A stretch of 64,000 nt of DNA from a virus. The DNA is taken from IMG/VR virus record IMGVR_UViG_3300023174_000061, one strand, 5' to 3'. This document shows positions 11,185-30,053 of this stretch, one piece after another (within the stretch, counting starts at the first letter, position 1; each line of letters begins with the position of its first letter). The notes beneath the pieces are model-generated. The model was given only the letters and a program-made list of their open reading frames with translations, had not been told where the DNA came from and did not search any database. Made by a program: the position numbers and the translations under genes.

Positions 11185-11272
11185 GCGAGTGAGACTTGGT
11201 AGTCAGAGGAGTTTTATAAACTCTTTCCGCCAGATTAGCGGCTTTGACCTGGTTCGAATCCAGGCACTCGTA
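11185..11272 (+). tRNA. Atypical tRNA with TAT anticodon (Ile-like) and long variable arm
   Basis: Acceptor GCGAGTG/CACTCGT+A; D arm GACT-TGGT-AGTC; anticodon arm GGAGT-TT TAT AA-ACTCT; variable arm CCGC-N7-GCGG; T arm CCTGG-TTCGAAT-CCAGG. Confidence 0.75.
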
Positions 11273-11274
11273 CT

Positions 11275-14697: not shown

Positions 14698-15359
14698 AAT
14701 TTCTTACGTTTTTGAATAGTGGATGTGTAGACATCTGTAAGAACATGTTGATTTCTGCTGAGAATGTTGGAATTGATATGGATGATTTTTATATTGCTTG
14801 TTTAGATTCTAATGCATATGAAAATTTAAAAGAATATAAAAATGCTTTTCTTCATATAGATCAACCAATCACAGAATATCAAAATTGGACTTTTGATAAA
14901 GAAAGTGGTTTTAGAAATATTGTTAAAATCAAATGGTCTATTATTAAAAAAATTTATCAAGAAAATAAAAATCTTTGTTGGGTAGATACTGATATTGTAT
15001 TTGTTGAAAATCCAATTGAAATCATTGAAGGAAATGAAGAAGTTTTATTTCAATCTGATAGTCCAGGTTCCACTCTTTGTTCTGGATTTATGGTTTTTAA
15101 TGATACCAAAGAATGTGAATCTTTGGTAAATGAATGTGGATCCAATGAAATAGAAGACGACCAATTAATTGTAAATGAGATTGCTTTAACAAAATATAGA
15201 GATCATATTGCAATATTGAGTCCTGATTTATTTCCCAACGGACATGTATATTATAATGAAGGAAGGAAAGAAAATGCTGTAATAGTTCATAATAATTGGA
15301 TGGTAGGTGTAGAAGAAAAGACTAAAAGATTTAAGGAGGAGAAATTATGGTTCTTATGA
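14694..15359 (+). CDS. Nucleotide-diphospho-sugar transferase (GT77-like)
   Basis: WVDTDIVFVENP, CSGF, DDQ, HNNW..G...K. Confidence 0.8.
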   Translation: MKFLTFLNSGCVDICKNMLISAENVGIDMDDFYIACLDSNAYENLKEYKNAFLHIDQPITEYQNWTFDKESGFRNIVKIKWSIIKKIYQENKNLCWVDTDIVFVENPIEIIEGNEEVLFQSDSPGSTLCSGFMVFNDTKECESLVNECGSNEIEDDQLIVNEIALTKYRDHIAILSPDLFPNGHVYYNEGRKENAVIVHNNWMVGVEEKTKRFKEEKLWFL

Positions 15360-16210
15360 ATAATGATGCATTGAGACCTGCATCTATTTCTCCCATATAC
15401 CCTCCATATCATACAGGAGAATATCTTGAAGAGTATTTCTTCAAAAGATGGAATGAAGAAAATATTCAAACTGATAGACAGTATATTGATGTTTTTTGGA
15501 CTAATAATTTTTGCAATTCTATGTTTGCTGGACAACAGTATGAAAACGTTCAAGAGCAATTAGATAATACTCTTTCATCTGATGGGAAATATTTTACAGT
15601 ATCACAATTTGATGATGGTCCTTTTGAAAAATTTCCAGAAGATACTTTGATTTTTTCTGCTGGTGGAAATCGTGAGGGGGATAATATTATTCCTATTCCT
15701 TTAATTTGTAGTTCTATTCCAAACGAATTAATTCCAAATAAAGAAAAAACTATTCTTGCTTCTTTTGTTGGTTCTAGAGATACTCATCCAATTCGTATGG
15801 ATATGTGTAATTATTTGTCTGGAAAGGAAGGATATAAAATTTCTGCTGGAAACTGGTCCACAGAAGTCCCTATGGACAACTTCAAAAGATTTCTGGATAT
15901 AACCTGCTCTAGTAAATTTGGACTTGCTCCAAGGGGTTATGGGAAGAGTAGTTTTAGAATGTATGAAATTCTTCAATTAGGAACTGTTCCAGTTTATATT
16001 TCAGATGTTCATTACCTTCCTTGGACTGATGAATTGGATTGGAATGATTTTTGTGTTCCTGTAAATGAAGATGAGATTAAAGACATTGATGCTATACTAA
16101 AATCAATAGATGATGTAGAATATACTAAATTGTTGGAAAATGGAAGAAAAGTATATGAAGAGTATTTTACTCTCGAAGGAATATTTAAAAACATCACAAA
16201 AAGGATATAG
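15347..16210 (+). CDS. Exostosin-family (GT47-like) glycosyltransferase
   Basis: SKFGLAPRGYG.SSFRMYE.LQLGTVPVYISD...LP...ELDW. Confidence 0.85.
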   Translation: MVLMNNDALRPASISPIYPPYHTGEYLEEYFFKRWNEENIQTDRQYIDVFWTNNFCNSMFAGQQYENVQEQLDNTLSSDGKYFTVSQFDDGPFEKFPEDTLIFSAGGNREGDNIIPIPLICSSIPNELIPNKEKTILASFVGSRDTHPIRMDMCNYLSGKEGYKISAGNWSTEVPMDNFKRFLDITCSSKFGLAPRGYGKSSFRMYEILQLGTVPVYISDVHYLPWTDELDWNDFCVPVNEDEIKDIDAILKSIDDVEYTKLLENGRKVYEEYFTLEGIFKNITKRI

Positions 16211-16213
16211 TTT

Positions 16214-16984
16214 ATGAAAACCTATTATGATAAGTTAAAAGAATTACTTACTCCTTATGATCTTGGTTTTACCAAAATGAGAATTGGTCCTCATTGTGAT
16301 GGAGGATATGTAATTTATCAAGAACCATTATTGAAAACTAATAATGTTTATTCACTTGGAATTGGACCAGTTTGTGGATCTGATTTTCAATTAGCACAAA
16401 TGGGAAAAATCATACACATGTATGATGCAGAACCTTTTTACCATAATGAGCATCCAAACTATCGGTTTAAACAAATTTATGTAACATCAGAAGTTTTTGA
16501 TGCCGAACTTGATACAGTGAATGATACTAATCTTTTGATGTGTATTGATATAGAAGGAGGTGAATATGAGATTTTGCCTAATATGAAAGAAGAAAATCTT
16601 TTAAAGTTTTCTCAGATTTCTATTGAAATTCACTGGATAGGTGGTGAAAATCGTATTGTAAATGGAGTTCCACAGAATGGTGGAAGAGCACTTGGTGATA
16701 ATGGTGAATGCGTTATTAAATTGCTTGAAAAATTAAATAAGCATTTTTATCTTTACCACATTCATATTAATAATGGTGCTAATCCTTTTGAAAATTTCCC
16801 TGATGTGATTGAATGTTCCTATCTTAGAAAAGATTTATGCACACAAGTTGATAAAGAGTTTTCAATGCATTTAGTTACTATACATAAAGAAACTAAATCA
16901 TATCCTTTGGATGGTTTAGATTATCCAAACTATACAGGACCAAGTAATTTGGCAGTAAATCCTGAATTTAATTGGTGGTTATGA
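16214..16984 (+). CDS. FkbM-like methyltransferase
   Basis: RIG...DGGY, YSLGI, IDIEGGEY, QISIEIH. Confidence 0.75.
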   Translation: MKTYYDKLKELLTPYDLGFTKMRIGPHCDGGYVIYQEPLLKTNNVYSLGIGPVCGSDFQLAQMGKIIHMYDAEPFYHNEHPNYRFKQIYVTSEVFDAELDTVNDTNLLMCIDIEGGEYEILPNMKEENLLKFSQISIEIHWIGGENRIVNGVPQNGGRALGDNGECVIKLLEKLNKHFYLYHIHINNGANPFENFPDVIECSYLRKDLCTQVDKEFSMHLVTIHKETKSYPLDGLDYPNYTGPSNLAVNPEFNWWL

Positions 16985-18363
16985 TACCTAAAAATATATT
17001 TCAATCTTGGATATCTAAAGATCTTCATCCAGAAATACAAAAAAAAGTTGATAATATAAAAAGTTTAAATCCTGAATATAATTATCAACTTTATACTGAT
17101 TCTGAAATTGATGAATTTGTAAATACTTTTTATCCAGGAGAAGTATCAGAATGTTTTAATAGATTAAATGTTCCTGTAGCAAAAGTTGATTTTTGGAGAT
17201 ATTTGGTTCTTTACAAATATGGTGGGATATATGTTGACTTAGATTCATCTATTGATATTTCTTTGAATGAACTTATAAGAGAAAATGACACTGCAATTAT
17301 TACAGCAGAAACTAATCAAAATACTTTCGTTCAGTGGGCTTTAATTTTTGATAAAGAACATCCAATTCTAAACAAAGTTATTGAATTGGTTCTTGATAAT
17401 ATTCAAAATAATTTATATCCAAATGATATATTGCAAATGACAGGACCTCAGGTTTATTCCAAGGCAATAATGTCATTGCACTACGATTTGTTTGGAGAGA
17501 ATTTAAATTTTAATAGTATTGATCGTGATACTGATATAACTTTTTCTAAAGATTTAATTTCTTATAGAATTTATGGAATTGATTACAATAATAAATTTAC
17601 TTTTAAGTTTCCAGAAAGTGAGTATCTTTATTATGAAAAAGAACCTTGGAGAAATGAATTAGCAAAGAAAGAACTTTTACATCCAAAGTTAAATGTTGAT
17701 AATATCTATATTTGTCATTATAAAAAGTTAGAGGAAAGAAAAAAATCTATTCTAGAACAATTTAAGGAAGAAAAAATTTATAGATATGAATTTGTAGAAA
17801 ATTTTGATAAGAACGAATGGAATGTTGAAGAGATAGAAGAAGAATATCCTAAAGTATTCAAAGAATGGAAAAAAGGATTGGATTCTTATGACGATAATTC
17901 TCAAAATTCCGAAAGATCTTTGGCATTAAAACATGCATTTATATTAAAGGATATTTTTAAAAAACAATATGAAACAACTTTAATCTTGGAAGATGATGCC
18001 ACTTTATGCGATGATTTTGTAAATTATTGCAATCTTTTTATATCTCAACTTCCAGATGATTGGGATGTTGCTTGGGTTGGATCTTGTTTGAATTTGCACG
18101 AACCAAGTATTGATGGCAAATATGTTTATAAAACAAGTAGAGGATCTAGGTGTACTCATGCATTTTTAGTCAGTAAATCAATGGTAAATAAAGTAATAGA
18201 TTGTATATCTGATATTAATCTACCTTCAGATCACTTTTATAATTATTTGATTGAAAAATTCAATTTAAATAATTATTGGTTTGAACCATCACTGGCTATA
18301 CAAAGTCTAGATTTTTGTTCTGCTATTTCTGGTAATTACTGGAATTCAAATAATATAAATTAA
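16981..18363 (+). CDS. Bifunctional glycosyltransferase: GT32 (OCH1-like DxD) + GT25-like
   Basis: IPKNIFQSW, DFWRYLVLYKYGGIYVDLD and TGP. Second domain has SLALKH, LILEDD and THAFLVS. Confidence 0.85.
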   Translation: MIPKNIFQSWISKDLHPEIQKKVDNIKSLNPEYNYQLYTDSEIDEFVNTFYPGEVSECFNRLNVPVAKVDFWRYLVLYKYGGIYVDLDSSIDISLNELIRENDTAIITAETNQNTFVQWALIFDKEHPILNKVIELVLDNIQNNLYPNDILQMTGPQVYSKAIMSLHYDLFGENLNFNSIDRDTDITFSKDLISYRIYGIDYNNKFTFKFPESEYLYYEKEPWRNELAKKELLHPKLNVDNIYICHYKKLEERKKSILEQFKEEKIYRYEFVENFDKNEWNVEEIEEEYPKVFKEWKKGLDSYDDNSQNSERSLALKHAFILKDIFKKQYETTLILEDDATLCDDFVNYCNLFISQLPDDWDVAWVGSCLNLHEPSIDGKYVYKTSRGSRCTHAFLVSKSMVNKVIDCISDINLPSDHFYNYLIEKFNLNNYWFEPSLAIQSLDFCSAISGNYWNSNNIN

Positions 18364-18371
18364 TTTTAACT

Positions 18372-19217
18372 ATGAAAATATGTTTCTCTGATTTTTGGTC
18401 TCCTTTTGATCCAAACAATAACTTTTTTACTCATCTTTTAAATCAATCTTTTGAGAATGTTGAAGTTGTAAATCCAGAAGATGCTGATGTAATGTTTTTC
18501 AGTGTTTTTGGAATGGAAAATAATTTATATAAAAATTGTAAAAAAATATTTTTTACTGGTGAAAATATAAGACCAAATTTTAATAAGTGTGATTATTCAC
18601 TCACATTTGATTTTGATGATTATGAAGGAAAGAATTTTCGTCTTCCTCTTTGGTATCTTTATATTGATTGGTTTAATGTAAAGACCTATGATAATCCTGA
18701 ATGGTTAATTCCAGAGTCTTATCTTTATGGTGAAAATGAATTCACTCAAAAACCAAAAGACAAATTTTGTTCGATTGTTTTTGGTAAAGTGGTTGAATCT
18801 AGATTAAATGCAATTCAAAAAATTTCTGAATATAAAAAAGTAGATATTTTTGGCAAAGCAAATCCAGAATACCATCTTCCAGATGGAGAAAAACATAAAT
18901 TAGATTTAATTTCAAATTATAAGTTTTCTCTTTGCTATGAAAATTCTGTTACACCAGGTTATCATACTGAAAAATTACTTCATGGAAAAATTGCTGGAAA
19001 TATTCCAATTTATTATGGTGACAAAACTGTTTGTAAAGATTTTAATTCAAAGTGTTTTGTTAATACAGTAAATATGTCTGATGAAGAATTGATTGAAATA
19101 ATTAAACAAATTGATACAAATAAAAAATTGTATGATAGAATGAATTCTGAACCTTTATTTGAAAATAAAATTTCTCTTGAACCATTAATTAAAAATCTTT
19201 ATAATATTTTAAAATGA
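18372..19217 (+). CDS. GT10-family alpha-1,3/4-fucosyltransferase
   Basis: IFFTGEN and YKFSLCYENS...GYHTEKL......IPIYYG. Confidence 0.88.
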   Translation: MKICFSDFWSPFDPNNNFFTHLLNQSFENVEVVNPEDADVMFFSVFGMENNLYKNCKKIFFTGENIRPNFNKCDYSLTFDFDDYEGKNFRLPLWYLYIDWFNVKTYDNPEWLIPESYLYGENEFTQKPKDKFCSIVFGKVVESRLNAIQKISEYKKVDIFGKANPEYHLPDGEKHKLDLISNYKFSLCYENSVTPGYHTEKLLHGKIAGNIPIYYGDKTVCKDFNSKCFVNTVNMSDEELIEIIKQIDTNKKLYDRMNSEPLFENKISLEPLIKNLYNILK

Positions 19218-19942
19218 ATTTACATCTAATTTCTTTTGGTGCTCCTGAACAAAAATATGCTTATACTAGAAATAGATTTTATAATGAAGCATTGAATCTA
19301 GGAGTTTTTAAATCTATTAAAGTTCTTTCTGACATTGAATCTTTTGATTATACCAAAGAGTTGTTGGACCATAAAGATTTTCTTTATTCTACTAGGGGAT
19401 TTGGTTATTGGATATGGAAATATTTTTTAGTATCAGAGATGATGAAAGAGATAGAGTCTGATGATATTTTGATGTATTGTGATTCTGGATGCACTTTAAA
19501 CCCAAATGGTTTGAATAGATTGCAATATTATGTAAATGTTGCATATGAAAAAGGTTCTTTAGTTTTTGATGTTGGGCATCCAGAATTCAAATATACAAAA
19601 ATGGATACATATAAAAGAGTATTTGAAAATGATTTTGAAAATTTAGAAACAAATCAAATTTGTGCAACAGCATTCTTTTTAAAAAATAATGATACAAATA
19701 AAAAAATAATAGAAGAAATAAAAAAAATTTCAACTGAAAACAAATATCATTATGTTTCTGATGCTATATCTAATTTAGAAAATGATTCTAGATTTTTAGA
19801 ACATCGTCACGACCAATCAATATTTTCTCTTATTTCAAAAAAAAATAATTTTTTTGTTATAAATGATGAAACATATTGGAATCCAGACTGGAATGTCTCT
19901 GGAAAAAATTATCCAATTTGGGCAACAAGATTTAGGCCATGA
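19214..19942 (+). CDS. Putative glycosyltransferase
   Basis: RGFGYWIWK, YCDSG and EHRHDQSI motifs. Confidence 0.65.
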   Translation: MNLHLISFGAPEQKYAYTRNRFYNEALNLGVFKSIKVLSDIESFDYTKELLDHKDFLYSTRGFGYWIWKYFLVSEMMKEIESDDILMYCDSGCTLNPNGLNRLQYYVNVAYEKGSLVFDVGHPEFKYTKMDTYKRVFENDFENLETNQICATAFFLKNNDTNKKIIEEIKKISTENKYHYVSDAISNLENDSRFLEHRHDQSIFSLISKKNNFFVINDETYWNPDWNVSGKNYPIWATRFRP

Positions 19943-21051
19943 AAGTTATTAAAAGAAAAAATTGTGCAATTACCAAAAGTGAAAATTTAACAGAAGTTTT
20001 TACTTTTAAAAATTTTCCTATTTTTATGGGTTGTGTTGATTTTAATGATGATAATCTTGATCAATACTATAATATGAAATGGGGAGTATCAGATAAAGGA
20101 ATAATTCAATTGATGGAATTACTTCCTCTAGATCTTCTTTATTATAATCACCATACACCAGGAACTGTAGGAAAAACTTGGGAATTGCATCATAAAAAAT
20201 TTGCTGATTTTATCAAAAAAAGTAATCCAAAAAATATTTTAGAAATAGGTGGTGCTACAGGAAAACTAGTAAATCATTTCATTTCTACTAATGAAGATTT
20301 TTCTTGGAACATTATCGAACCATCAGAACAAAAAAGTAAAGATTCTAGAGTTAAATTCTTTCGTGGTTTTTTTGAAGAGTTTGAATTTAATCAAAAATTT
20401 GATGCAGTAATTCATTCTCATCTTTGTGAACACGTTTATGAACCACATACATTTTTTAATAAAATAAATTCAATTTTAGAGATTGGTGGTATTCAATATA
20501 TTTCAATACCAAATATGAAACATTGGATTTCTATGGGATATTTAAATACACTTAATTTTGAACATACTTTTTATATCGATGAATATGTGTTGGAATATAT
20601 TTTGTGGCAATACGATTTTGAAATAGAAGAAAAAGAAATTGACAATCATTCAATCTTTATAAAAGCAGTAAAAAAAGAAAAAAATAATTCTTTATATGAG
20701 TTTGATTTTTCATATATCAAACCGATGTTTGATAATTATATTAAAAAATTGAGTGATGATGTTGAATATATTAATTCAAAACTAAGTGGAGAAAAATTTT
20801 ATCTTTTTGGTGCTCATATTTTTTCTCAATATTTAATTTCTATGGGAATTAATAAAAATCAAATTATCAATATCCTTGATAATGATTTTAATAAACAAAA
20901 GAAACGAATGTATGGAACAAACATTACTGTAAAATCTCCTCAAATATTAAAAAATATTGACAAACCAATTATAGTATTGAGAACTGGAATATATGATAAT
21001 GAAATAAAAGAAAAAATACTGCAAATAAATTCATCTTCTATTTTCTATTAA
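19939..21051 (+). CDS. SAM-dependent sugar (C-)methyltransferase-like protein
   Basis: ILEIGGATG, SHLCEH, FEHTFY and C-terminal FGA...ILDND..KQ...MYGT. Confidence 0.75.
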   Translation: MKVIKRKNCAITKSENLTEVFTFKNFPIFMGCVDFNDDNLDQYYNMKWGVSDKGIIQLMELLPLDLLYYNHHTPGTVGKTWELHHKKFADFIKKSNPKNILEIGGATGKLVNHFISTNEDFSWNIIEPSEQKSKDSRVKFFRGFFEEFEFNQKFDAVIHSHLCEHVYEPHTFFNKINSILEIGGIQYISIPNMKHWISMGYLNTLNFEHTFYIDEYVLEYILWQYDFEIEEKEIDNHSIFIKAVKKEKNNSLYEFDFSYIKPMFDNYIKKLSDDVEYINSKLSGEKFYLFGAHIFSQYLISMGINKNQIINILDNDFNKQKKRMYGTNITVKSPQILKNIDKPIIVLRTGIYDNEIKEKILQINSSSIFY

Positions 21052-21068
21052 TTAAAGGAATTTTACTT

Positions 21069-21740
21069 ATGAAACTTGCTATTTGTTTTTATGGATATCC
21101 GAGATTTTATGAAACTGGATATCAAACTACTAAAAAATTATATGAAGGTTGTAATTTGGAATATTATGCTAATTTTTGGGGAGATGGAAAAGAATTAGAT
21201 CAAATTACTAGTCTTTTTAATTTTAAAAAAATAGAAATGCAACCACAAATGGAAAAATTTAAAGAAATATCTTGTAATCCAAATCTATCAAAAACTTCCA
21301 AAGATTTATTTACTACAATTTCTCCACTATATTCAATTCAAAAATTGCATAATTTAATAAAAGAATCAGATGAAGATTACGATTTTTGGATTTTGACAAG
21401 AACTGATATTGGTGTTGATTTTGATTTTTATTTAAATAGTATTGAGTATGATAAAACTAAAATATATTCTTCATATGTAAGGGGAAATGAATGGTTAAAT
21501 ACCCATATAGATACAAAATTTATAATGTGCGACAAAAAAAATATTTTAAACTTGACAAATATATACGAAAATTTGGACCATTATATCTGTAATAAAAATA
21601 TTCCATTATGCCACCATCGTTTATTTTTTAATTCTCTTTTAGAATATGGAAGTGATATGGAAATGATCATGGCCAATCCCAATGATGATTATGCTGGCGG
21701 ATGGAGATTTATAAGAAATAATGAAATGAAAATTTCATGA
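21069..21740 (+). CDS. Glycan-island hypothetical protein (GT-like; MKLAICFYG..R / TRTD family)
   Basis: N-terminal pattern and YD...TR.D motif shared with the next two ORFs. Confidence 0.6.
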   Translation: MKLAICFYGYPRFYETGYQTTKKLYEGCNLEYYANFWGDGKELDQITSLFNFKKIEMQPQMEKFKEISCNPNLSKTSKDLFTTISPLYSIQKLHNLIKESDEDYDFWILTRTDIGVDFDFYLNSIEYDKTKIYSSYVRGNEWLNTHIDTKFIMCDKKNILNLTNIYENLDHYICNKNIPLCHHRLFFNSLLEYGSDMEMIMANPNDDYAGGWRFIRNNEMKIS

Positions 21741-22474
21741 AAAATTTAAAGATTTGCATTTTGATAATTGGTAGATTGGATACCTTTGAAACTTGTTATG
21801 AATCTTTACACAAATATATTTTAGAACCACTTAATGTGGATGTATTTTTTTCTGGATATCCAAATTTTCTTGGGTTGGAATATTGTGAAAATAAAATTGA
21901 AGAATTGTGGAAACCAAAAAAATATTGTTTAAGAGACTATACTGATATTATTAGAAAATAAATTCATTTGGATGATTCGAGATTTATAAGAAAAAGGTCA
22001 GAATGTACTCCACATACTTGGTTGAGTGGAATGTATAATCTTAAAATTTCCAATAAATTAAAAAATGAATATGAGAAAGAAAATAATTTTAAATATGATA
22101 TTTGTATAAAATCTAGAACAGATGCAATTTGGCATAGTTATATAACAAATGAAGAAATTGATTTGGTTCTCAAAGATTCAAAAAATATTTTGATTCCTAC
22201 TGCATGGGATTTTAAAGAAGTACATAATTTAGGTTGTTCTGATGTTTCTTGTGTAACTTCTTCACATGGAATGGATATATATTCATCTTGTATAGACTTT
22301 ATAGATGAATATTATGATTCTGGAGAAGTATTTCATCCAGAAAGTCTTCTTGGTATTCATATTAATAATTTTTTAAATAGAATATCAATAAAAACTGGAA
22401 TTGATCCATATACAAACCAACCTAATCAATCTGGATGGTGTGTTGTTGATCCAAATAGAAAAAAATCTTTTTAA
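21737..22474 (+). pseudogene. GT-like gene interrupted by a single in-frame TAA (21959-21961)
   Basis: 21737..21961 and 21968..22474 are in the same frame. The joined product matches its paralogous neighbours in size and motifs (KICILIIGR..., YDICIKSRTD). Confidence 0.65.
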
Positions 22475-22481
22475 TAAAAAA

Positions 22482-23276
22482 ATGAAAATAGCATTATTAA
22501 TTTGTGGTCAAATGAGAACTTTTGATCACCCAAAAGTATTAAAATATTTAAATCAATTTATTGAAAAGTTTAATTGTGATGTATTTTTGTCAACTTGGAA
22601 TAATAGAGGAATATCTGTTTGGAGTGAACATGCTTTAAAAGAACAAGCAGATATTCAAAATCAAGAAAAAAATAAATCAATCAGTTTAGACCATATTAAC
22701 TTAATTCCTAATATTAAAAAATATACAATAGATGATTATGAAGAATTCATTAACAATCAATCTAATGGTGAAATAAAATCATTTTTAAATCAAAGTTCAG
22801 ATACTTTGTATCACTCAAAAGCAACTAGTATTCCTTCTTTATATAAATTGTATTCTACATACCAACTACTTGAAGAATACGAAAAAGAAAATAAAATTAA
22901 ATATGATATTGTAATTAAAACCAGACCAGATTTTTTACATGTTCATACTGACATAGAAAAATATTTTGATAGAATTGATGACACTTTATTTCATATTAAT
23001 ACTGGCATATCTTATTGTCCAGATAGGGTGTATGAAATGTTTTTTCTTTCGTCGTCAAGTATTATGAAAACAGTTTGTGAATCTTGGTTAAACTTTAATC
23101 AATTGGTTGGTACTGATTATTCTTTGCATATGGCTAGATTGGATGCTTGTAGATTGGTCTATTCTCAGTGCATTCTAAATAATATTAAGATAGACACATT
23201 TGATAAGGTTCTTGGTGATGTTCTGAGAATAGAAAATTACTCAGACTACCAATCTTTCGAAAATATGTTTATTTGA
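22482..23276 (+). CDS. Glycan-island hypothetical protein (GT-like; MKIALLICGQMR / YDIVIKTRPD)
   Basis: Motifs paralogous to the 21069 and 21737 ORFs. Confidence 0.65.
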   Translation: MKIALLICGQMRTFDHPKVLKYLNQFIEKFNCDVFLSTWNNRGISVWSEHALKEQADIQNQEKNKSISLDHINLIPNIKKYTIDDYEEFINNQSNGEIKSFLNQSSDTLYHSKATSIPSLYKLYSTYQLLEEYEKENKIKYDIVIKTRPDFLHVHTDIEKYFDRIDDTLFHINTGISYCPDRVYEMFFLSSSSIMKTVCESWLNFNQLVGTDYSLHMARLDACRLVYSQCILNNIKIDTFDKVLGDVLRIENYSDYQSFENMFI

Positions 23277-23305
23277 TTGACATTTTTTGTTTTTTATTTT
23301 AAAAT
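23277..23305 (+). promoter_or_regulatory. Sigma70-type promoter for the NTP-transferase/RibB sub-operon
   Basis: TTGACA-N17-TAAAAT. Confidence 0.6.
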
Positions 23306-23324
23306 TTTTTTATAACCCTTGTAT

Positions 23325-24758
23325 ATGACTATGAACATTTTATTTCCAATCGCAGGTCTTGGAACTCGTTTTAAATCAAATGGTTACAATGAACCAAAAC
23401 CATTTGTAGATGTAAAAGGAAAACCATTAATTGAATGGGCAATTTCCTCAATCAATCTTCCTGGAAAATATTACATTATTGTTAATGGTCTTCCAGCAAA
23501 ATACATTCAAGTTCTTACTGATATTAAGAACAAATATTATTTGGATATGGAAATTATTGATATTGGACATTCTACTAGAGGACAAGCAGAAACTTGTCTT
23601 CTTGCATTAGAAACTGGAAAAATTGATCTTTCTGAACCACTGGTTATTACAAATTGTGATCAGTATACTCCTTGGAATCCTAATAAGTTTATTAAATTTA
23701 TTAAAGAAACAGACTGTGATGGAGTAGTTTCTACATATGATCATTCGGATGTTGTTGTTGGTGAGGAAAGTAGATATAGTCATATTGAACTCGATGAAAA
23801 TGGTTATGCAACTAGACTTGCTGAAAAAGTTGCAATTTCTCCCTGGTCTTTGAATGGAATTTTCTACTGGAAGAATGCAAACCTTTTTGTTGAAAGTGCA
23901 AAGAACCTTATGACTGATGATTCGGATGCAGGATGGTCATCTGGTAAAGTTTCTTGTGTTAAAGAAAAATATGTTGCTTTGACTTATAATTATTTGATTA
24001 AGGATGGTTATAAGATTAAAAACTATCATATGGAATGTGATGATTTTGTGTCCCTTGGAAGTCCTGGAGAAATTATTTTGAATCTTAAGCAATCGAATGT
24101 AAAACAAGCTGTTGAAGATATTCGCAATGGTAAACCAATTGTTATGGTTGATGATTATGATCGTGAATTTGAAGGAGATATTGTATTTGCAGCAGAAAAA
24201 GCAACCGAAGAAAATCTTCTTTTTGCTATGAGACACGCAAGAGGATTGATGTGCCTTCCTTGCAATCAGGAAAAACTGGATCAACTTGAAATTCCTATGA
24301 TGAATTGCAATTCAATGGATAAGTATGGAACTCCTTTTGCAACTAGTATTGATGCAGTAGAAGGTGCTACTACTGGTATGTCCGTTGGTGATCGTCTTGC
24401 TACTATCAATACCTTCTGCTCTGATGAATCTAAACCAAGTTCTCTTGCACAACCTGGTCACTTATTCCCTCTCCGTGCCCGTCCTGGTCTTCTGTCTGAA
24501 CGTAGAGGTCACACTGAGGGATGCGTTGAAATTCTCCGTTTAGCAGGTATGAAGGAGGTTGGAGTTATTATTGAAATTATGGATGAATATGGAAAAATGA
24601 TTAAGGGTGATACTCTCCGTCAGTTTGCTAAGATTTATAATCTTACTTTTGTTTCAATTGAAGAACTTCATGATGAAGTTTATAGCAAGTCTGAATCTGG
24701 AAGAGTTCCTCTTTCTTCTGTTAGCAAAGAAACCTTAGAAAATATGATGAAGATTTGA
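23325..24758 (+). CDS. Sugar-phosphate nucleotidyltransferase fused to RibB (3,4-dihydroxy-2-butanone-4-phosphate synthase)
   Basis: N-terminal PIAGLGTRF...PKP, TRGQAET, NCDQ and EK. C-terminal DDYDREFEGD, GLMC, TTGMS..DR, PGHLFPL and RRGHTE. Confidence 0.88.
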   Translation: MTMNILFPIAGLGTRFKSNGYNEPKPFVDVKGKPLIEWAISSINLPGKYYIIVNGLPAKYIQVLTDIKNKYYLDMEIIDIGHSTRGQAETCLLALETGKIDLSEPLVITNCDQYTPWNPNKFIKFIKETDCDGVVSTYDHSDVVVGEESRYSHIELDENGYATRLAEKVAISPWSLNGIFYWKNANLFVESAKNLMTDDSDAGWSSGKVSCVKEKYVALTYNYLIKDGYKIKNYHMECDDFVSLGSPGEIILNLKQSNVKQAVEDIRNGKPIVMVDDYDREFEGDIVFAAEKATEENLLFAMRHARGLMCLPCNQEKLDQLEIPMMNCNSMDKYGTPFATSIDAVEGATTGMSVGDRLATINTFCSDESKPSSLAQPGHLFPLRARPGLLSERRGHTEGCVEILRLAGMKEVGVIIEIMDEYGKMIKGDTLRQFAKIYNLTFVSIEELHDEVYSKSESGRVPLSSVSKETLENMMKI

Positions 24759-25723
24759 TGGACTTTACAACTAGAGCTTATAATAGTTTTGAATTTAATT
24801 CAAAAACAAAAGCAAGTATTATTAAATCTAGTGAAGAAGATCGTCTTCTTGGGGAGATTGAATACTATCAAAATCTCCCTAAGGATATTCAAGTTTATTT
24901 TCCAAGAATGTTGAATTATTCAACTGATGAAAAAATTTATCAGATGGAACTTGAATATTATGCTTATGGAAATTTGGGAAATGTTATGACAAATCAGGAT
25001 TATAATCCTGATTTTTGGACTAAAGTTTTTGACTTTATTTTTTCTTACATCAATAACTATAAGGAATCTACTTCCGTTCTTGCATCTAAAGAAGACTCTT
25101 TATTGATGTTTGTGGATAAGACAGAGAAAGAATACATTAATTTGATGTATAAGTTTGATTTTTTCTCTCAATTTAGAAATACAAAAGAATTTGTATTTAA
25201 TGGTAAGATTTTAAAATCCTTTGATGTTATTTGGGAAAAAATTAAATCTTATATTGAAACATCAATATGTGATGATAAATTTCATTTTATTCATGGTGAT
25301 CTTTGTTTTAGTAATATTCTTTATGGAGTAAATGATATTACCAATGATGTGATTTTAAAATTCATTGATCCTAGAGGAGTTTTTGGTAAAACAAAATTCT
25401 TCGGTGATTCATATTATGATCTTGCAAAAATATCACATTCATGTAATGGTGGTTATGAATTTTTTATCTATGATAAGTTTGATGTTTCAAATGTAGGTAA
25501 TCAATTCAAACTTTCTTTTCATAATGAGCAAAGAAAAAATGATATTAATAATAAATTTTTATCTATTTCTGATGAGTATAAATTTGATTATAATAAGATA
25601 AAATTAATTGAAGGTCTTATCTTTGTTGGAATGTGTGCAAGACACTATGACAATTTAGATAGACAAAAAGCAATGTTGATGACTGGACTTAATATTTTAA
25701 ACAATGTCTACGAAAATTTATAA
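24758..25723 (+). CDS. APH/choline-kinase-like sugar phosphotransferase
   Basis: RAYN, IIKSS, HGDLCFSNIL, IDPRG.FG, YDLAK..HS. Confidence 0.82.
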   Translation: MDFTTRAYNSFEFNSKTKASIIKSSEEDRLLGEIEYYQNLPKDIQVYFPRMLNYSTDEKIYQMELEYYAYGNLGNVMTNQDYNPDFWTKVFDFIFSYINNYKESTSVLASKEDSLLMFVDKTEKEYINLMYKFDFFSQFRNTKEFVFNGKILKSFDVIWEKIKSYIETSICDDKFHFIHGDLCFSNILYGVNDITNDVILKFIDPRGVFGKTKFFGDSYYDLAKISHSCNGGYEFFIYDKFDVSNVGNQFKLSFHNEQRKNDINNKFLSISDEYKFDYNKIKLIEGLIFVGMCARHYDNLDRQKAMLMTGLNILNNVYENL

Positions 25724-26063
25724 ATTTTGTTTTGATCTTGATGGAACAATATGCCACATTAAGAAAGAGGGACAACACTATCTTGACGTTGAACCTCTTC
25801 CTGGTGCAGTTGAGACACTGCAAAGATTGAAGTCTAAAGGTCACTACATTATTATTATGACAGCAAGAAACATGCTTACATATAATAATAATGTAGGTAA
25901 AATTATTGCCAATCAATCACCTATTGTGTTAGAATGGTTAAATAAACATCAAATTCCTTATGATGAAATTCATTTTGGAAAACCACTTGCTGACTTTTAT
26001 ATTGATGATAAAGCAATTAGATTAACTAATTGGGAAAATTTTAACAAACAAATTGGAGAATAA
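25704..26063 (+). CDS. Capsule-biosynthesis-type HAD phosphatase
   Basis: FDLDGTIC, TAR, FGKP.ADFYIDDKA. Confidence 0.88.
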   Translation: MSTKIYKFCFDLDGTICHIKKEGQHYLDVEPLPGAVETLQRLKSKGHYIIIMTARNMLTYNNNVGKIIANQSPIVLEWLNKHQIPYDEIHFGKPLADFYIDDKAIRLTNWENFNKQIGE

Positions 26064-26064
26064 A

Positions 26065-26874
26065 ATGAGAGATTTCTTTTTTGATACAGCTAACATTCCA
26101 TTTATTAAAGATACAATGGAAAAATATGGATCACAAATTGATCCAAAATGGGTGCGAGGCATAACAACAAATCCAAATGCATTCAGTAAAGTTGATATGT
26201 ATCATTTGGATGAATGGATTTCACATGCATCAGAAATGGGAAAATTGATTGCTGATATTCGTGGTGATAATGAAGGTGAGATTCATATTCAAGCACCTTA
26301 TTCATTATTAGATCCAAAGATTATTCTTGAATATGCAAAAATTATTACTGATGCAACACAAGGAAACTGTAAGGTTGGAATGAAAATTCCTCCCTTCCAA
26401 AATGTTCTTGAGTATGTTGATGAATATAATCAGTATGTAATTACTAATGTTACTGGTCTTGCAGATTCATCTACTGCTCTTAAATGTTGCACCTATAATG
26501 TTGGATATGTGAGCATCATTCCTGGTCGTATGGAAGAAGTTGGAATCGATGCAGAGTCTGCGATTGCTTTTGTAAACCAATGCAATTTTGGTAATACTCA
26601 AATTATTACTGGAAGTCAAAGAACAACTGAACAAATAATTTATTCATTCTACTTAGATACTGTCCCTACAATTGGTGAAAAGTGTTGGGGTGATATTTTT
26701 CAAGGTGATAATTTCCAACGTATTTTGGATATTGAATATGGTTATGAACCTGTTGGTCCTTTTAGTCCAACAATTTCTCAAGATAATATCAATCTTTCTC
26801 TTGCTTTCTTTGAACAAATGGATAGTCTTGGAGATACTGCTAGAAATGATTTGGAGAAAAAGATATCTTTATGA
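26065..26874 (+). CDS. Divergent transaldolase/fructose-6-phosphate-aldolase-fold protein
   Basis: FDTAN, GITTNP, KIP (Schiff-base Lys), NVT, YVS...GR. Confidence 0.78.
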   Translation: MRDFFFDTANIPFIKDTMEKYGSQIDPKWVRGITTNPNAFSKVDMYHLDEWISHASEMGKLIADIRGDNEGEIHIQAPYSLLDPKIILEYAKIITDATQGNCKVGMKIPPFQNVLEYVDEYNQYVITNVTGLADSSTALKCCTYNVGYVSIIPGRMEEVGIDAESAIAFVNQCNFGNTQIITGSQRTTEQIIYSFYLDTVPTIGEKCWGDIFQGDNFQRILDIEYGYEPVGPFSPTISQDNINLSLAFFEQMDSLGDTARNDLEKKISL

Positions 26875-27821
26875 GAATAGCATTTCATGATAATTCTTTA
26901 TGTTTGCGGGGAACCACAGTAGCAATTTATGATTGGGCATATTGGACTAGACATTATCTTAATATTGACCCAATCATTATGTTTAATTTAAAAAATAATT
27001 TTAATGATAAAAGTGTCATTAAAAAATTTGAAAACGAATTTCCTGTTTTTGGATATGAAGATAAATCCCAAATAGATGATATTTTATCCAAAAATAAATG
27101 TGATGCATTTTTAATGGAAAAAGGAGGTGAACCTGATGGTGTAATTTCATCAGTTTCTAAAAATTTAGTAAATGCTATATCTGGATGGTGGAAACCAGAA
27201 TGGGTTCATGGAGATGTTTATGCTATGGGTTCAAAATGGTTGTCTAAAATAACTGATTATAAAATACCTTATGTTCCATATATTGTACATCTTCCAGATC
27301 ATAATTTAAATATGAGAGATGAGTTAGGAATTCCTAAAGATGCATTGGTTTTTGGAAGAAATGGTGGGTGGGATACTTTTGATCTTCAATTTGTAAAGCA
27401 ATCAATTGTAGAAAATTTAGAAAAAAGAAGTGATATTTGGTTTATTTTTCAATACACAGAACCTTTTTATGAACATGAAAGAATAATATATCTTGAACCA
27501 ACTGCTGATTTGAATGAAAAAGTTAGATTTATTAATACTTCTGATGTGATGCTACATGCAAGAAATATTGGGGAATCTTTTGGATTATCTTGTGCAGAAT
27601 TTTCAATTAGAAATAAACCTGTGATTACTTATTACAATTCTCTCGAAAGAAATCATATTGATACTTTAGATGAAAAAGGAATATTTTATGAAAATAAAGA
27701 AGATATTGATCATATTTTATTGAACCTAGATAGAAATGAAATAACTGGATTGGAATGGAATTGTTATCAAGACTATTCTCCCGAAAATGTAGTACAAAAA
27801 TTTAAAGAGGTTTATTTGTGA
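26871..27821 (+). CDS. GT-B (GT4-like) glycosyltransferase
   Basis: RDELGIP...VFGR.GG and GESFGLSCAEF....PVI. Confidence 0.8.
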   Translation: MRIAFHDNSLCLRGTTVAIYDWAYWTRHYLNIDPIIMFNLKNNFNDKSVIKKFENEFPVFGYEDKSQIDDILSKNKCDAFLMEKGGEPDGVISSVSKNLVNAISGWWKPEWVHGDVYAMGSKWLSKITDYKIPYVPYIVHLPDHNLNMRDELGIPKDALVFGRNGGWDTFDLQFVKQSIVENLEKRSDIWFIFQYTEPFYEHERIIYLEPTADLNEKVRFINTSDVMLHARNIGESFGLSCAEFSIRNKPVITYYNSLERNHIDTLDEKGIFYENKEDIDHILLNLDRNEITGLEWNCYQDYSPENVVQKFKEVYL

Positions 27822-28453
27822 ATATACAAGATTACTTAAGAGAATTGAGCAAAAAATATAAACCCAATTCAATATTAGATATTGGAGCACATCACGGAGA
27901 ATTTTCTAAATTTTGTAAATCATTGTGGAAAGATGTCGATCTGTTTATGATAGAAGGAAATGATGAATGTGATTCTATTCTAGATAACGTTCCTTTTGAT
28001 CACTGCATTGTTTTGTTAAGTGATACCAATAAAGAAGTTACTTTATATTTAAATCCCAACAATTTGGATTGTACTGGTACATCTTATTATAAAGAAAGAA
28101 CAAGACACTATAAAAATAGTATAGAGGTTAAGAAAAATACATATACTTTAGATGAAGTTGTAGAAGATATTGATAAGAAATATGATATAATTAAGATTGA
28201 TACTCAAGGATCTGAATTGGATATCATAAAAGGTGGATTGAAAACAGTTCAGAATTGTTCTTATTTAATAATGGAAGTTCCTACTCTTCAATACAATGAA
28301 GGTAGTCCTTTATTTGATGAAATAATTGAATATATGAATAATATTGGATTTTCTGATCATGAAATTATTGAAGAACATAAGTGGATGGATAGAAATGAAA
28401 ATACATTTGAATATGGTAGTACTTTTCAAGTAGATGTTGTCTTTAAAAAGTAA
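27818..28453 (+). CDS. FkbM-family methyltransferase
   Basis: ILDIGAHHG and IKIDTQGSELDIIKGG. Confidence 0.88.
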   Translation: MNIQDYLRELSKKYKPNSILDIGAHHGEFSKFCKSLWKDVDLFMIEGNDECDSILDNVPFDHCIVLLSDTNKEVTLYLNPNNLDCTGTSYYKERTRHYKNSIEVKKNTYTLDEVVEDIDKKYDIIKIDTQGSELDIIKGGLKTVQNCSYLIMEVPTLQYNEGSPLFDEIIEYMNNIGFSDHEIIEEHKWMDRNENTFEYGSTFQVDVVFKK

Positions 28454-28458
28454 AAAAA

Positions 28459-29352
28459 ATGAAATCTTTAGTAACAGGCGGTGCTGGATTTATTGGTTCC
28501 AATCTAGTTGATGCACTCATAGAGTTAGGTCATGAAGTTATAGTAATTGATAATGAAAGTGCAGAATCTAATGGACAATTTTATTGGAATCCAAAAGCAC
28601 AAAATTACAAGTATGATATTTGTGATTATGAAAAAACTAGACCTCTTTATGAAGGTGTTGATTATGTATTTCATCTTGCTGCTGAGGCAAGGATTCAACC
28701 AGCAATTTTAAATCCAATTGAAGCAATAACTACTAATTGTGTTGGTACAGTTACAGTTCTTCAATGTGCCAGAGAGGCAGGAGTTCAAAAAGTAATTTAT
28801 TCCTCCACATCTTCTGGTTATGGATTTAATCAATCTCCAAATCACGAAAATCAACGAGATGATTGTTTGAATCCATATTCAGTATCAAAAGTTGCTGGAG
28901 AAAAACTTTGTAAAATGTATAATGACCTATTTGGTCTTAAAACAATTTTCTTTAGATATTTTAATGTTTATGGTGAAAGACAACCATTAAAGGGACAATA
29001 TGCACCAGTAATTGGTATTTTCTTACGTCAAAGAAAAGATGCCGAACCTCTTACAATTGTTGGTGATGGTGAACAACGTAGAGACTTCACACACGTATCT
29101 GATGTAGTTCAAGCAAATATTCTTGCAGCAACAAAAGATATTAATGATGAATTTTATGGAGAACTTTATAATGTAGGTAATGGAGTTAATTATTCGATTA
29201 ATGAAATTGCAAATGCTATTTCTGAAAATCAAATAAATATTCCAACAAGAATTGGAGAGTCACGAACTACTCTTGCAAACAATGGAAAATTGAGAACCAT
29301 TTTTGGATGGAGACCTCAAGTGAATTTAATGGATTGGATTAAAACTCAATGA
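28459..29352 (+). CDS. NAD-dependent nucleotide-sugar epimerase/dehydratase
   Basis: VTGGAGFIGS, YSVSK, RYFNVYG, GDGEQRRDF. Confidence 0.92.
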   Translation: MKSLVTGGAGFIGSNLVDALIELGHEVIVIDNESAESNGQFYWNPKAQNYKYDICDYEKTRPLYEGVDYVFHLAAEARIQPAILNPIEAITTNCVGTVTVLQCAREAGVQKVIYSSTSSGYGFNQSPNHENQRDDCLNPYSVSKVAGEKLCKMYNDLFGLKTIFFRYFNVYGERQPLKGQYAPVIGIFLRQRKDAEPLTIVGDGEQRRDFTHVSDVVQANILAATKDINDEFYGELYNVGNGVNYSINEIANAISENQINIPTRIGESRTTLANNGKLRTIFGWRPQVNLMDWIKTQ

Positions 29353-30053
29353 ATTTATTAATAGAATATTTTAGATCTGATGATTATCAGAGACATAGTG
29401 AATATATTACTTGTATTCACGAGAATTTAGAAAATGAACATATTGAAAAAATATATGTTTTTGTTTCCGATGATTCTAAATTAAATTTTAAATCAGATAA
29501 ATTGGAAATTGTCCAAATAGATGAACGTCCTACATACAAAGATTTATTTGAGTTTTGTAATACAAATTTAAATAATCAAATTTGTATTATTTCAAATGCA
29601 GATATTATTTTTGATGATACTATATCGAATCTAAAAGAAGTCAATCTTATAGAAGTCTTTGTTGCTCTAACTAGATGGGAAGTATTTTGTGAAAATGGTG
29701 AATGGTGTATCGCACCATTTAATAATTCATCATCTCAGGATGTATGGGCATTCCAAACCCCAATCAAAGTTACAGACGAAATGAATTTCCATCTTGGAAA
29801 ACCTAGATGTGATAATAAGATTGCAAAATTAATATCAGAACATTATGAAATTCGTAACCCAGGTCTTCAAATTATAACTTCTCATTTCCATATGTCTGGA
29901 TATAGAACTTATTCTGGTAACGAAGGAATGCCTGGACCTTATCTTTGCTTAGTTCCAAATGATGATATTAATAAAAAAACAGAATATGTTGAGATTGACG
30001 GATTTGACGAACAAGGAAGGGCTTATCGAATAGAAAAATCAAATAATGGATAA
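29349..30053 (+). CDS. Putative GT-A glycosyltransferase
   Basis: ISNADIIFD, ALTRW, SQDVW, G...CDN. Confidence 0.6.
   Translation: MNLLIEYFRSDDYQRHSEYITCIHENLENEHIEKIYVFVSDDSKLNFKSDKLEIVQIDERPTYKDLFEFCNTNLNNQICIISNADIIFDDTISNLKEVNLIEVFVALTRWEVFCENGEWCIAPFNNSSSQDVWAFQTPIKVTDEMNFHLGKPRCDNKIAKLISEHYEIRNPGLQIITSHFHMSGYRTYSGNEGMPGPYLCLVPNDDINKKTEYVEIDGFDEQGRAYRIEKSNNG

Follow-up and report, generated by a model that had tools for sequence, protein, structure and literature searches.

A conserved RibB-linked gene module in the glycan island of a marine cyanophage that may make a nucleotide-activated sugar

The closest described counterpart of the locus reported here is the Afh pathway, which converts arabinose-5-P through Ara-1,5-P2 and Ara-1-P to UDP-Araf and for which the biochemistry of AfhE and AfhF has been reported (PMC13326640). 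AfhE combines a nucleotidyltransferase (NTase) with an APH-fold kinase, AfhF is a HAD protein and the feeder enzyme is an arabinose-5-P isomerase; the UDP-D-arabinofuranose serves arabinosyl-5-hydroxycytosine DNA in the phages E. coli HY126, RB69, DLP3 and Serratia 92A1 (PMC13326640). Related genes form a cellular cassette in capsule and LPS loci, comprising an NTase–kinase fusion, a BcbF/1xpj-type HAD and an NTase. In P. multocida, bcbE/F/G, which include a BcbF-type phosphatase, have been linked genetically to fructose side chains (PMC13552107). The route to GDP-D-glycero-alpha-D-manno-heptose (GmhA, HddA, GmhB, HddC) shares the logic of kinase, distal phosphatase and NTase with the present locus.

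The DNA analyzed here, termed the window, is a stretch of 64,000 nt from a marine cyanophage related to Synechococcus phage S-SKS1. Inside its glycan island, four overlapping or abutting genes at 23325-26874 encode an NTase–RibB fusion, an APH-fold kinase, a 119-aa HAD phosphatase and a divergent aldolase of the transaldolase/FSA family. All four ORFs lie where a preliminary description of this DNA had placed them, and the block with its intact RibB fusion is confirmed as real. It is arranged with its neighbors as follows.

21069-21740 and 21968-22474 (together 21069-22474), + strand: two further DUF7796-like paralogs, in the same cluster as the protein at 22401-23276
22482-23276, + strand: DUF7796-like protein directly upstream of the block; its ORF opens at 22401
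23277-23305, + strand: sigma-70-like promoter candidate TTGACA-17-TAAAAT, in the 42-nt gap 5' of the fusion gene
23325-24758, + strand: NTase–RibB fusion, 477 aa from the ATG at 23325 (ORF from 23319); NTase domain at about 23325-24080, RibB (DHBP synthase) domain at about 24081-24713
24758-25723, + strand: small-molecule kinase of the APH/choline-kinase fold (ORF from 24755)
25704-26063, + strand: HAD phosphatase of 119 aa, 1xpj/BcbF/AfhF type
26065-26874, + strand: divergent class I aldolase of the transaldolase/FSA family, likely start ATG 26065 (ORF opens at TTG 26053)
26871-27821, + strand: 316-aa candidate glycosyltransferase overlapping the aldolase stop (Glycos_transf_1 0.004, below cut-off)
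27818-28453, + strand: FkbM-type methyltransferase, a possible tailoring enzyme
28459-29352, + strand: NAD-dependent epimerase/dehydratase, a possible tailoring enzyme

The kinase ATG overlaps the fusion stop (TGATG), the next junction is a 20-nt overlap and the last a 1-nt gap; because the genes overlap or abut, the block fits a single operon. It had also been credited with its own sigma70-type promoter. A site matching the sigma-70 pattern at 11/12 positions is indeed present at 23277-23305, but such sites are as frequent in shuffled sequence as in this region (62 expected and 62 found, no excess), so that a dedicated promoter is plausible rather than evident.

S-SKS1 carries the same block, and the gene order is kept at 38-42% identity in unrelated viral contigs; the 477-aa fusion protein itself occurs in identical form on 13 contigs. 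Searching with the aldolase alone retrieved 46 IMG/VR loci at 33-98% identity. All of these encode the kinase, 45 the HAD, 44 RibB and 42 the NTase, within about 4 kb, and the neighborhood of RibB, transaldolase-like enzyme and kinase–HAD–NTase triad that had been suggested as a search target thus recurs among viruses. At least four gene orders were found, with genes fused or unfused. Some module variants have two NTases, and in the viral variant L114 the kinase, HAD and aldolase occur without RibB. The module was also present in two metagenome-assembled genomes (MAGs); in one, from a Planctomycetota member, a contig of 59% GC carries an independent RibB–NTase–kinase triple fusion followed by an NTase, HAD and aldolase. 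Judged by these sequence comparisons, the order kept at 38-42% identity and the recurrence in 44-46 of 46 viral loci place conservation of the block far above chance and support the four genes as a real conserved functional module inside the glycan island.

Neighboring genes recur to different degrees. The DUF7796-like family occurs in 44 of 50 module loci, often in 2-3 copies and usually abutting the module (27/46 members match PF25072, best 2.4e-7), and the protein at 22482-23276 is a candidate transferase for the module product. Homologs of the 316-aa protein, with its faint GT1-like signal, were detected in 19/50 loci. Members of the SDR cluster that includes the epimerase/dehydratase appear in 30/50, where the distant ones, at 25-30% identity, may be generic SDRs.

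Canonical RibB converts ribulose 5-phosphate to 3,4-dihydroxy-2-butanone 4-phosphate (DHBP) and formate. In the fusion, PF00926 (DHBP_synthase) matches aa 263-451, about nt 24105-24671, at 2e-65 and 220.4 bits (cut-off 26.4), and the TIGR00506 ribB score of 185.6 bits exceeds the curated cut-off of 177.45. Alignment with solved RibBs (E about 1e-49, 45-50% identity) places DREFEGD, the Cys, TTGMS, PGHLFPL and RRGHTE, bearing out the earlier reading of an in-frame fusion that retains REx-EGD, Cys, PGH and RxGHTE. Across 29 module RibBs, the catalytic, metal-binding and substrate-binding motifs (RExEGD, Cys, TxGxS, PGHxFPL, RxGHTE and the distal Glu) are invariant and match the canonical consensus. 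The family nevertheless forms a long-branched clade separate from 25 housekeeping RibBA proteins (support 100/100, with canonical sequences from two phyla only), varies at several positions that all sampled housekeeping proteins share (among them canonical N, R and R), replaces Gly by Leu at one clade-specific site in the loop preceding RRGHTE and scores 220-246 bits against PF00926, versus 278-301 bits for canonical RibBs. Such divergence would suit an enzyme with a new function, acting on another ketose phosphate, for example the aldolase product, and yielding a deoxy or branched sugar phosphate directly for the triad to activate, with no free DHBP as intermediate; the chemistry invoked is enolization, dehydration and skeletal rearrangement. 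We regard this as unlikely, given that no motif residue for metal binding, substrate binding or catalysis varies, that the TIGR00506 equivalog cut-off is passed and that identity to solved RibBs is 45-50%.

The genomic context sets the module RibB apart from riboflavin enzymes of the same fold. Its fusion partners or neighbors are enzymes of sugar activation and not RibA, and ribA, ribD, ribH and ribE partners are missing. Canonical RibBA proteins match the 64-kb window through their RibB half only, with no RibA-like sequence, in agreement with the earlier statement that the window holds no other riboflavin gene. Genes for ribA, ribH or ribE elsewhere in the genome would have spoken against the preliminary reading; the complete genome of the relative S-SKS1 has no GTP cyclohydrolase II (PF00925), lumazine synthase (PF00885) or riboflavin synthase (PF00677). 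Absence of other rib genes is established for the window and S-SKS1 only. Both MAGs with the module each keep a separate, normal housekeeping RibBA. This context, together with the separate clade, argues for the non-flavin role that had been proposed.

The triad points to sugar activation. The NTase domain matches PF00483 (NTP_transferase, 3.8e-6, aa 13-196) and PDB 4evw (3e-9), as well as the NCBIfam models for MurU, HddC and AglF, all below their own cut-offs, and is predicted to be a sugar-1-phosphate nucleotidyltransferase of the MurU/HddC class. The kinase has no Pfam match of its own; its structural model (pLDDT 92.7) retrieves APH and MTR kinases in Foldseek, and it carries the motifs HGD..N and DPRG with invariant K24, E34, HGD180-182, N187 and D205. 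Its profile aligns with residues 218-510 of the AfhE-type protein of Serratia phage 92A1 (hhalign 98.4%, E 6.5e-15, 271 columns), a homology for which tblastn gave matches in 304 phage records. The HAD matches Pfam HAD families, PDB 1xpj (7.8e-24) and, below that family's cut-off, TIGR01689 (1.4e-28), the ‘capsule biosynthesis phosphatase’ family. With the 119-aa HAD of the 92A1 Afh cluster it shares 32% identity (E 4e-11); in that cluster, the AfhE-type and HAD genes adjoin an arabinose-5-P isomerase and a ThyA homolog. On these alignments, kinase and HAD are clear homologs of AfhE and AfhF, which lends a characterized precedent to the suggestion that the triad activates sugar phosphates.

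Both routes would start from ribulose 5-phosphate and proceed from a sugar-omega-phosphate through the 1,omega-bisphosphate and 1-phosphate to an NDP-sugar, with NTases of the same MurU/HddC-like class. They differ in that the module NTase is fused to RibB and the AfhE NTase to the kinase, and in the feeder: where Afh has a SIS isomerase, the module has RibB and a transaldolase-family aldolase, and no SIS protein was found in the block or its relatives. The module product cannot be arabinose. This is the substitution that the preliminary description had envisaged, and because the triad is widespread in cellular genomes without either enzyme, RibB and the aldolase look like a new feeder replacing arabinose-5-P isomerase. 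That description had, however, taken NDP-heptose routes as the analog, and the UDP-arabinofuranose route of AfhE and AfhF proved closer. The module NTase is weakly similar to HddC, whereas the kinase is of the APH and not the GHMP fold and the HAD of the 1xpj and not the GmhB type; membership in the GDP-heptose pathway was rejected on the kinase fold and the lack of a SIS domain.

In the cellular cassette, kinase (27-36% identity), HAD (40-56%) and NTase (23-35%) are homologous to those of the module and likewise have glycosyltransferase neighbors, but the cassette often adjoins WavE-family proteins where the module adjoins DUF7796 proteins. Among 80 cellular loci, the NTase was present in 72 and the HAD in 60, while RibB and the module aldolase occurred in 1. 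Hundreds of cellular loci carry the triad without RibB, BcbF-type phosphatases are genetically tied to fructose side chains (PMC13552107) and L114 combines aldolase and triad without RibB. Such a pattern would fit one operon doing two jobs, with aldolase and triad making an NDP-ketofuranose, for example of the fructose type, from central metabolites and RibB serving separately, either as an auxiliary metabolic gene that raises the riboflavin/FMN supply of the host or by providing DHBP as a non-glycosidic substituent. We consider this division quite unlikely: the aldolase subfamily is accompanied by RibB in all but two of the viral loci and in both MAG loci, independent lineages have fused RibB to different members of the module, S-SKS1 has no other riboflavin gene and the MAGs retain their own RibBA.

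The aldolase matches TAL_FSA (PF00923) at 5.8e-10 (39.4 bits, cut-off 27), and its model (pLDDT 94) is a TIM barrel that finds transaldolases in Foldseek (E 1.6e-10, TM about 0.78 by target). With FSA, TalB, T. acidophilum Tal and sulfofructose transaldolase it shares this barrel, the Schiff-base Lys, Asp, Asn, Thr, Ser and the phosphate-binding Arg/Ser/Arg. Invariant residues are D11, N40, K111 (the Schiff-base Lys), N132, T134, S154, R159, S188 and R190, with D11 and K111, the latter aligned to Tal K86, unchanged in 37 aldolase sequences. Also kept is the Ser that makes FSA/TalB prefer a donor hydroxylated at C1 (FSA A129S). The protein differs from the family in its low identity (21-24%), its own signature S-[ILV]-I-P-G-R-M-E-E, a long extra C-terminal helix and an almost exclusive occurrence in viral loci that contain RibB as well. 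In place of the catalytic Glu it has an invariant Gln80, aligned with position 60 of the Tal E60Q variant, and in this resembles FSA; unlike FSA, it has no catalytic Tyr, Ile156 replacing Phe/Tyr at the position aligned with 132 (F132Y). In the alignment, neither the transaldolase Glu nor the FSA Gln+Tyr signature is complete. With Gln in the place of the catalytic Glu and no FSA-type Tyr to accompany it, the mechanism of the aldolase is in doubt.

All five domains have intact catalytic signatures and co-occur across deep divergence, in several orders and in independent fusions. We think that the block probably constitutes one biosynthetic module making a nucleotide-activated sugar for the phage glycan island. 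RibB would draw on the abundant ribulose 5-phosphate of infected cyanobacteria and convert it to DHBP; the aldolase would combine DHBP with a second small carbonyl unit into a sugar phosphate able to close as a furanose; the APH-fold kinase would phosphorylate the anomeric hydroxyl, the small HAD phosphatase would remove the distal phosphate and the NTase domain would form the NDP-sugar, which the DUF7796-like or glycosyltransferase-like neighbors may transfer. The kinase, HAD and NTase steps are inferred from homology to the Afh pathway; the use of DHBP as a source of the carbon skeleton, the aldol step and the nature of the sugar are likewise inferred.

DHBP is the methyl-ketone analog of glyceraldehyde 3-phosphate. 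Our leading guess for the product, held with low confidence, is a C-methyl-branched ketose 6-phosphate, an analog of fructose 6-phosphate, that would form by aldol addition of a dihydroxyacetone-type donor to DHBP as the acceptor. The usual acceptors of class I transaldolase-family enzymes are aldehydes rather than ketones, and we therefore know of no precedent in the family for the proposed aldol reaction. The RibB-free L114, with kinase, HAD and aldolase in place, speaks against the proposed route, and because some variants have two NTases, the pairing of a single NTase with a single sugar may be an oversimplification. A tentative and rather doubtful proposal is that RibB was co-opted from flavin synthesis to supply DHBP as a four-carbon methyl-ketone block, that the new transaldolase-family enzyme builds it into a furanose-forming sugar phosphate, C-methyl-branched or 1-deoxy, and that the resulting NDP-sugar is destined for a viral or host glycan. 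Our literature search found no paper describing this RibB-linked module. The earlier interpretation of an unusual nucleotide-sugar pathway fed by RibB is partly supported.

The activated sugar could instead decorate phage DNA, as in phages with arabosyl-5-hydroxycytosine, in place of a glycan or glycoprotein, an alternative that bears on where the product ends up and leaves the pathway itself unchanged. The only characterized homologous triad, AfhE/AfhF, serves DNA hypermodification (PMC13326640), and the 92A1 homologs lie next to a ThyA homolog. S-SKS1, in contrast, has no ThyA-family gene (PF00303) in its genome and no DNA context for the module; the block lies among gmd, fcl, GT10 fucosyltransferase, GT47, GT25, GT32-like and methyltransferase genes; and cellular relatives of the triad reside in polysaccharide loci. 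A role in DNA decoration therefore seems very improbable.

If the glycan-directed reading is correct, the module would provide the first case known to us in which DHBP synthase serves a metabolic purpose other than flavin synthesis, and the recently described kinase, HAD and NTase scheme of furanose-phosphate activation would gain a further point of entry. Were DHBP indeed built into a branched sugar, the route would dispense with both SAM C-methyltransferases and apiose-type rearrangement. The proposal is directly testable, as S-SKS1 and its host Synechococcus WH7803 are cultured and four proteins would need to be reconstituted. It implies that abundant marine cyanophages and related uncultured viruses make an uncharacterized sugar, with a bearing on virion and host-surface glycans, receptor masking and the flow of carbon from pentose-phosphate and Calvin pools during infection.

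The module region of the window matches Synechococcus phage S-SKS1 (Llyrvirus, 208 kb) with 75% nucleotide identity over 98% of the region's length, and no other cultured phage matches over that length. Because the gene order of the block is also identical in S-SKS1, we assign the window to a cyanophage related to this phage. GC content in the AT-rich window falls to 24-30% between ~14 and 30 kb. The window codes for T4-like baseplate and tail proteins and, at 7922-7993, for tRNA-Gly(TCC). ARAGORN called a tRNA-Ile (anticodon TAT, 11185-11273), which, at 89 nt, is unusually long for this type. The features central to the analysis are as follows.

12014-30053: 18-kb glycan island enclosing the block, with gmd, fcl, a GT25-like gene, a nucleotide-diphospho-sugar transferase, a GT47 exostosin-like gene, a GT32+GT25 protein, a GT10 fucosyltransferase, FkbM methyltransferases, a class I methyltransferase, three DUF7796 paralogues, the module and an SDR epimerase
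21069-23276: the three DUF7796 copies, directly upstream of the module
23277-23305: candidate promoter, TTGACA-17-TAAAAT
23325-26874: the module, encoding a nucleotidyltransferase (NTase)-RibB fusion, an APH-fold kinase, a HAD phosphatase and a transaldolase/FSA-family aldolase
From ATG 23325: the fusion protein, 477 aa, with an N-terminal NTP_transferase and a C-terminal DHBP_synthase domain (2e-65)

ORF calls agree with the four genes and the glycan-island setting reported in the preliminary description. The genes overlap or abut one another, fitting a single operon. The block had also been credited with its own promoter; the motif is present, but such sites are equally common in shuffled sequence, so that it remains a candidate.

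Other marine contigs of viral appearance, encoding an intein-bearing DNA polymerase III alpha or ribonucleotide reductase, contain homologues of the fusion with 38-42% identity, and there too the kinase, HAD and aldolase genes follow downstream. An IMG/VR search that used only the aldolase alignment as query yielded 46 loci (33-98% identity). In the gene-neighborhood comparison proposed earlier, the expected partners recurred within ~4 kb of the aldolase: the kinase in all 46 loci, HAD in 45, RibB in 44 and the NTase in 42, with one of the two loci lacking RibB cut by a contig end. Gene orders included NTase-RibB fusion, kinase, HAD and aldolase, as well as free RibB, kinase, NTase, HAD and aldolase; further variants featured a second NTase or an NTase-HAD fusion. 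One viral variant (L114:2721-4611) encodes the kinase, HAD and aldolase with no RibB or NTase match; in their place stand a 359-aa protein of unassigned family and another APH-like protein, of 269 aa. A single occurrence of the aldolase signature turned up in 185,579 species genomes, on a 63-kb Planctomycetota contig (59% GC) from a metagenome-assembled genome (MAG). Here, an 817-aa protein (L134:2233-4686) combines RibB, an NTase-like domain and an APH-fold kinase, followed by NTase, HAD and aldolase genes, with an RmlD-like reductase nearby. In a Saprospiraceae MAG, the set lies unfused on a short contig. Alignment-based searches were required, as a GTDB scan with the fusion protein as single query returned no match. 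Co-occurrence in shuffled orders, together with two independent RibB fusions to different partners, strongly indicates that the five activities work together, as a conserved module rather than a chance neighborhood.

In eight of 50 module loci, the module adjoins a gene for a RuBisCO-like protein of 397-409 aa (PF00016, 3e-33 to 6e-36), for example at L126:7925-9154 and at L111:1522-2712 (with L111:500-1189 and 1189-1515). Its best PDB match is 3nwr, ‘a rubisco-like protein’, and genes for a small cupin and a methyltransferase-like protein precede it. The presence of such a form-IV-type RuBisCO homologue within a viral glycan locus suggests additional chemistry on ketose or diketone phosphates.

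The identical 477-aa fusion protein is recorded on 13 contigs. Its RibB half passes the curated TIGR00506 equivalog cutoff and aligns with solved RibBs at 45-50% identity. The motifs previously described as retained (DREFEGD, Cys, TTGMS, PGHLFPL, RRGHTE and the distal Glu) are all in place in this alignment, and the module RibB looks catalytically intact. In a phylogenetic tree, 30 module RibBs, including those of both MAGs, separated with 100/100 support from 25 housekeeping RibBA proteins, the latter drawn from Bacteroidota and Planctomycetota only. Both module-bearing MAGs additionally encode a normal RibBA. The earlier observation that the window contains no other riboflavin gene agrees with the lack of a RibA-like sequence in it, and this extends to the related S-SKS1 genome, in which GTP cyclohydrolase II, lumazine synthase and riboflavin synthase (ribA, ribH and ribE) are all missing. 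Given these absences, the co-occurrence of RibB with the module and the separate RibBA of the MAGs, we rejected a riboflavin auxiliary gene as the main reading. Module RibBs keep all motif residues, while several positions invariant in the housekeeping set are relaxed and a single clean clade-specific switch replaces a loop Gly with Leu (L389); from such changes, a new RibB specificity cannot be inferred. For the NTase domain, cytidylyl-type activation of 3,4-dihydroxy-2-butanone 4-phosphate (DHBP) is disfavored, as IspD/TarI-type matches were subthreshold (0.0016-0.009) and sugar-1-phosphate NTases matched better.

The aldolase scores above the TAL_FSA threshold, and its structural model (pLDDT 94) matches the transaldolase fold. 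Asp11, Asn40, the Schiff-base Lys111, Asn132, Thr134, Ser154, Arg159, Ser188 and Arg190 are kept in all 37 aldolase sequences. In contrast to transaldolases, Gln80 occupies the position of their catalytic Glu, and Ile156 takes the place of Phe in transaldolases and of the catalytic Tyr in FSA, equivalences read directly off an alignment to the Thermoplasma acidophilum E60Q/F132Y variant. This signature marks a distinct aldolase subfamily, which is almost confined to module-type viral loci.

The kinase (322 aa) has no Pfam match of its own, with relatives giving weak APH matches. All 44 sequences compared share Lys24, Glu34, HGD180-182, Asn187 and Asp205, and the confident structural model (pLDDT 92.7) matches kinases for aminoglycosides, choline and 5-methylthioribose. 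The 119-aa HAD protein matches PDB 1xpj (7.8e-24) and, below the cutoff, TIGR01689 ‘capsule biosynthesis phosphatase’ (1.4e-28). Within its gene, ~87 nt (25932-26018) share 77-81% identity with Enterococcus and Agathobaculum phage genes for HAD or ‘polynucleotide kinase’, and the protein is 42% identical to its counterpart in Enterococcus phage Planchet. In S-SKS1, the block is annotated, in order, as ‘3,4-dihydroxy-2-butanone 4-phosphate synthase’, hypothetical, ‘phosphoheptose isomerase’ and ‘transaldolase’; the third label, common for the small HAD phosphatase in S-SKS1 (record 36761-37117) and many T4-like phages, is an annotation error spread between records.

The closest characterized relatives of the kinase/HAD/NTase triad are phage enzymes for UDP-D-arabinofuranose. 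As outlined in the part of PMC13326640 that cites work on phage HY126, an isomerase turns ribulose 5-phosphate into arabinose 5-phosphate, AfhE (NTase plus kinase) converts this to the 1,5-bisphosphate, the HAD protein AfhF (best structural match 1xpj) strips the 5-phosphate and AfhE then forms UDP-arabinose. The window kinase family aligns with the AfhE-type protein of Serratia phage 92A1 (98.4% probability, E 6.5e-15, 271 columns), sharing the motifs IHGD..FSN and KFIDPRG.FG....G..YD.AK. Between the HAD protein and its 119-aa counterpart from the 92A1 cluster, identity is 32% (E 4e-11); this cluster is flanked by genes for an arabinose-5-P isomerase and a thymidylate-synthase homologue. This homology assigns the triad to a known kind of machine, in which an anomeric kinase, a distal phosphatase and an NTase work on a furanose phosphate. 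In place of the isomerase of the Afh pathway, the module has RibB and the aldolase, as had been proposed for an isomerase replacement. The comparison to NDP-heptose routes made at the same time did not hold: a SIS isomerase is absent and the kinase has an APH fold, ruling out a pathway of that type.

A kinase alignment search recovered >580 loci in bacterial and archaeal genomes. Among the best 80, an adjacent NTase was present in 72, HAD in 60 and RibB plus aldolase in one. The cassette occurs in Myxococcota, Planctomycetota, Lachnospiraceae, Legionella, Akkermansia, Thaumarchaeota and CPR, next to GT2 and GT4 glycosyltransferases, flippases, epimerases and often WavE-family proteins, with no SIS isomerase among the 25 commonest neighbor families. 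An N-terminal NTase fused to the kinase, with a second NTase after it, was confirmed only in L011 (L011:6035-9166); the kinase ORF of L020 bears an extra N-terminal stretch of ~225 aa with no Pfam match. Pasteurella multocida BcbF gave the HAD family its name, and the capsule fructose side chain requires bcbE and bcbG (PMC13552107). By this analogy, cellular cassettes may activate a ketofuranose, which we treat as a lead only.

In the proposed route, RibB, if intact as predicted, would convert ribulose 5-phosphate to DHBP, the aldolase would form a C-C bond using DHBP and, by homology, the kinase, HAD and NTase would activate the resulting sugar phosphate. The triad calls for a sugar phosphate able to close into a furanose, with its anomeric hydroxyl free and a phosphate at the distal end. 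DHBP alone is unable to cyclize, so a C-C bond-forming step is needed, and the aldolase is fifth among the conserved activities. The transaldolase/FSA family usually takes glyceraldehyde 3-phosphate as acceptor, and DHBP is the methyl-ketone analogue of this compound. The retained phosphate-binding residues and the Ser that favors dihydroxyacetone-type donors (compare FSA A129S) fit DHBP as acceptor; the product would then be a ketose 6-phosphate with a C-methyl branch, similar to fructose 6-phosphate. Alternatively, DHBP could serve as donor, or a two-carbon donor could yield a 3-C-methyl-pentose 5-phosphate. We consider it fairly probable that the module makes a nucleotide-activated sugar through RibB, the aldolase and the triad; branched or deoxy sugar chemistry derived from DHBP is a tentative and rather unlikely proposal.

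DUF7796 proteins (~250-290 aa; consensus MKIALCLSG..R ... DVF.H.W ... YD.VI..R.D) are encoded in 44 of 50 module loci, often in two or three copies and usually abutting the module. A gene overlapping the aldolase stop encodes a 316-aa protein whose GT1 signal is faint; this protein recurs in 19 module loci. These proteins are the best candidate transferases for the product. Compared with WavE by hhalign, DUF7796 reached only 27.7% probability (E 6e-4), over an N-terminal motif; of the 80 cellular loci, the viral DUF7796-family HMM picked up L010 and two from Variovorax, and no others. The island ORFs scanned showed no flippase, polymerase or priming transferase, and S-SKS1 lacks a ThyA homologue. 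A RibB-linked nucleotide-sugar route did not turn up in the literature searches, nor did anything on S-SKS1 with DHBP, RibB-nucleotidyltransferase fusions, S-SKS1 glycan genes or NDP-fructose/fructose-2-P. While the activation core of kinase, HAD and NTase is of a known kind, the RibB-plus-aldolase feeder, the NTase-RibB fusion and the implied sugar are new. With the glycan island around the module and no ThyA homologue in S-SKS1, a glycan is favored over DNA as the destination of the product.
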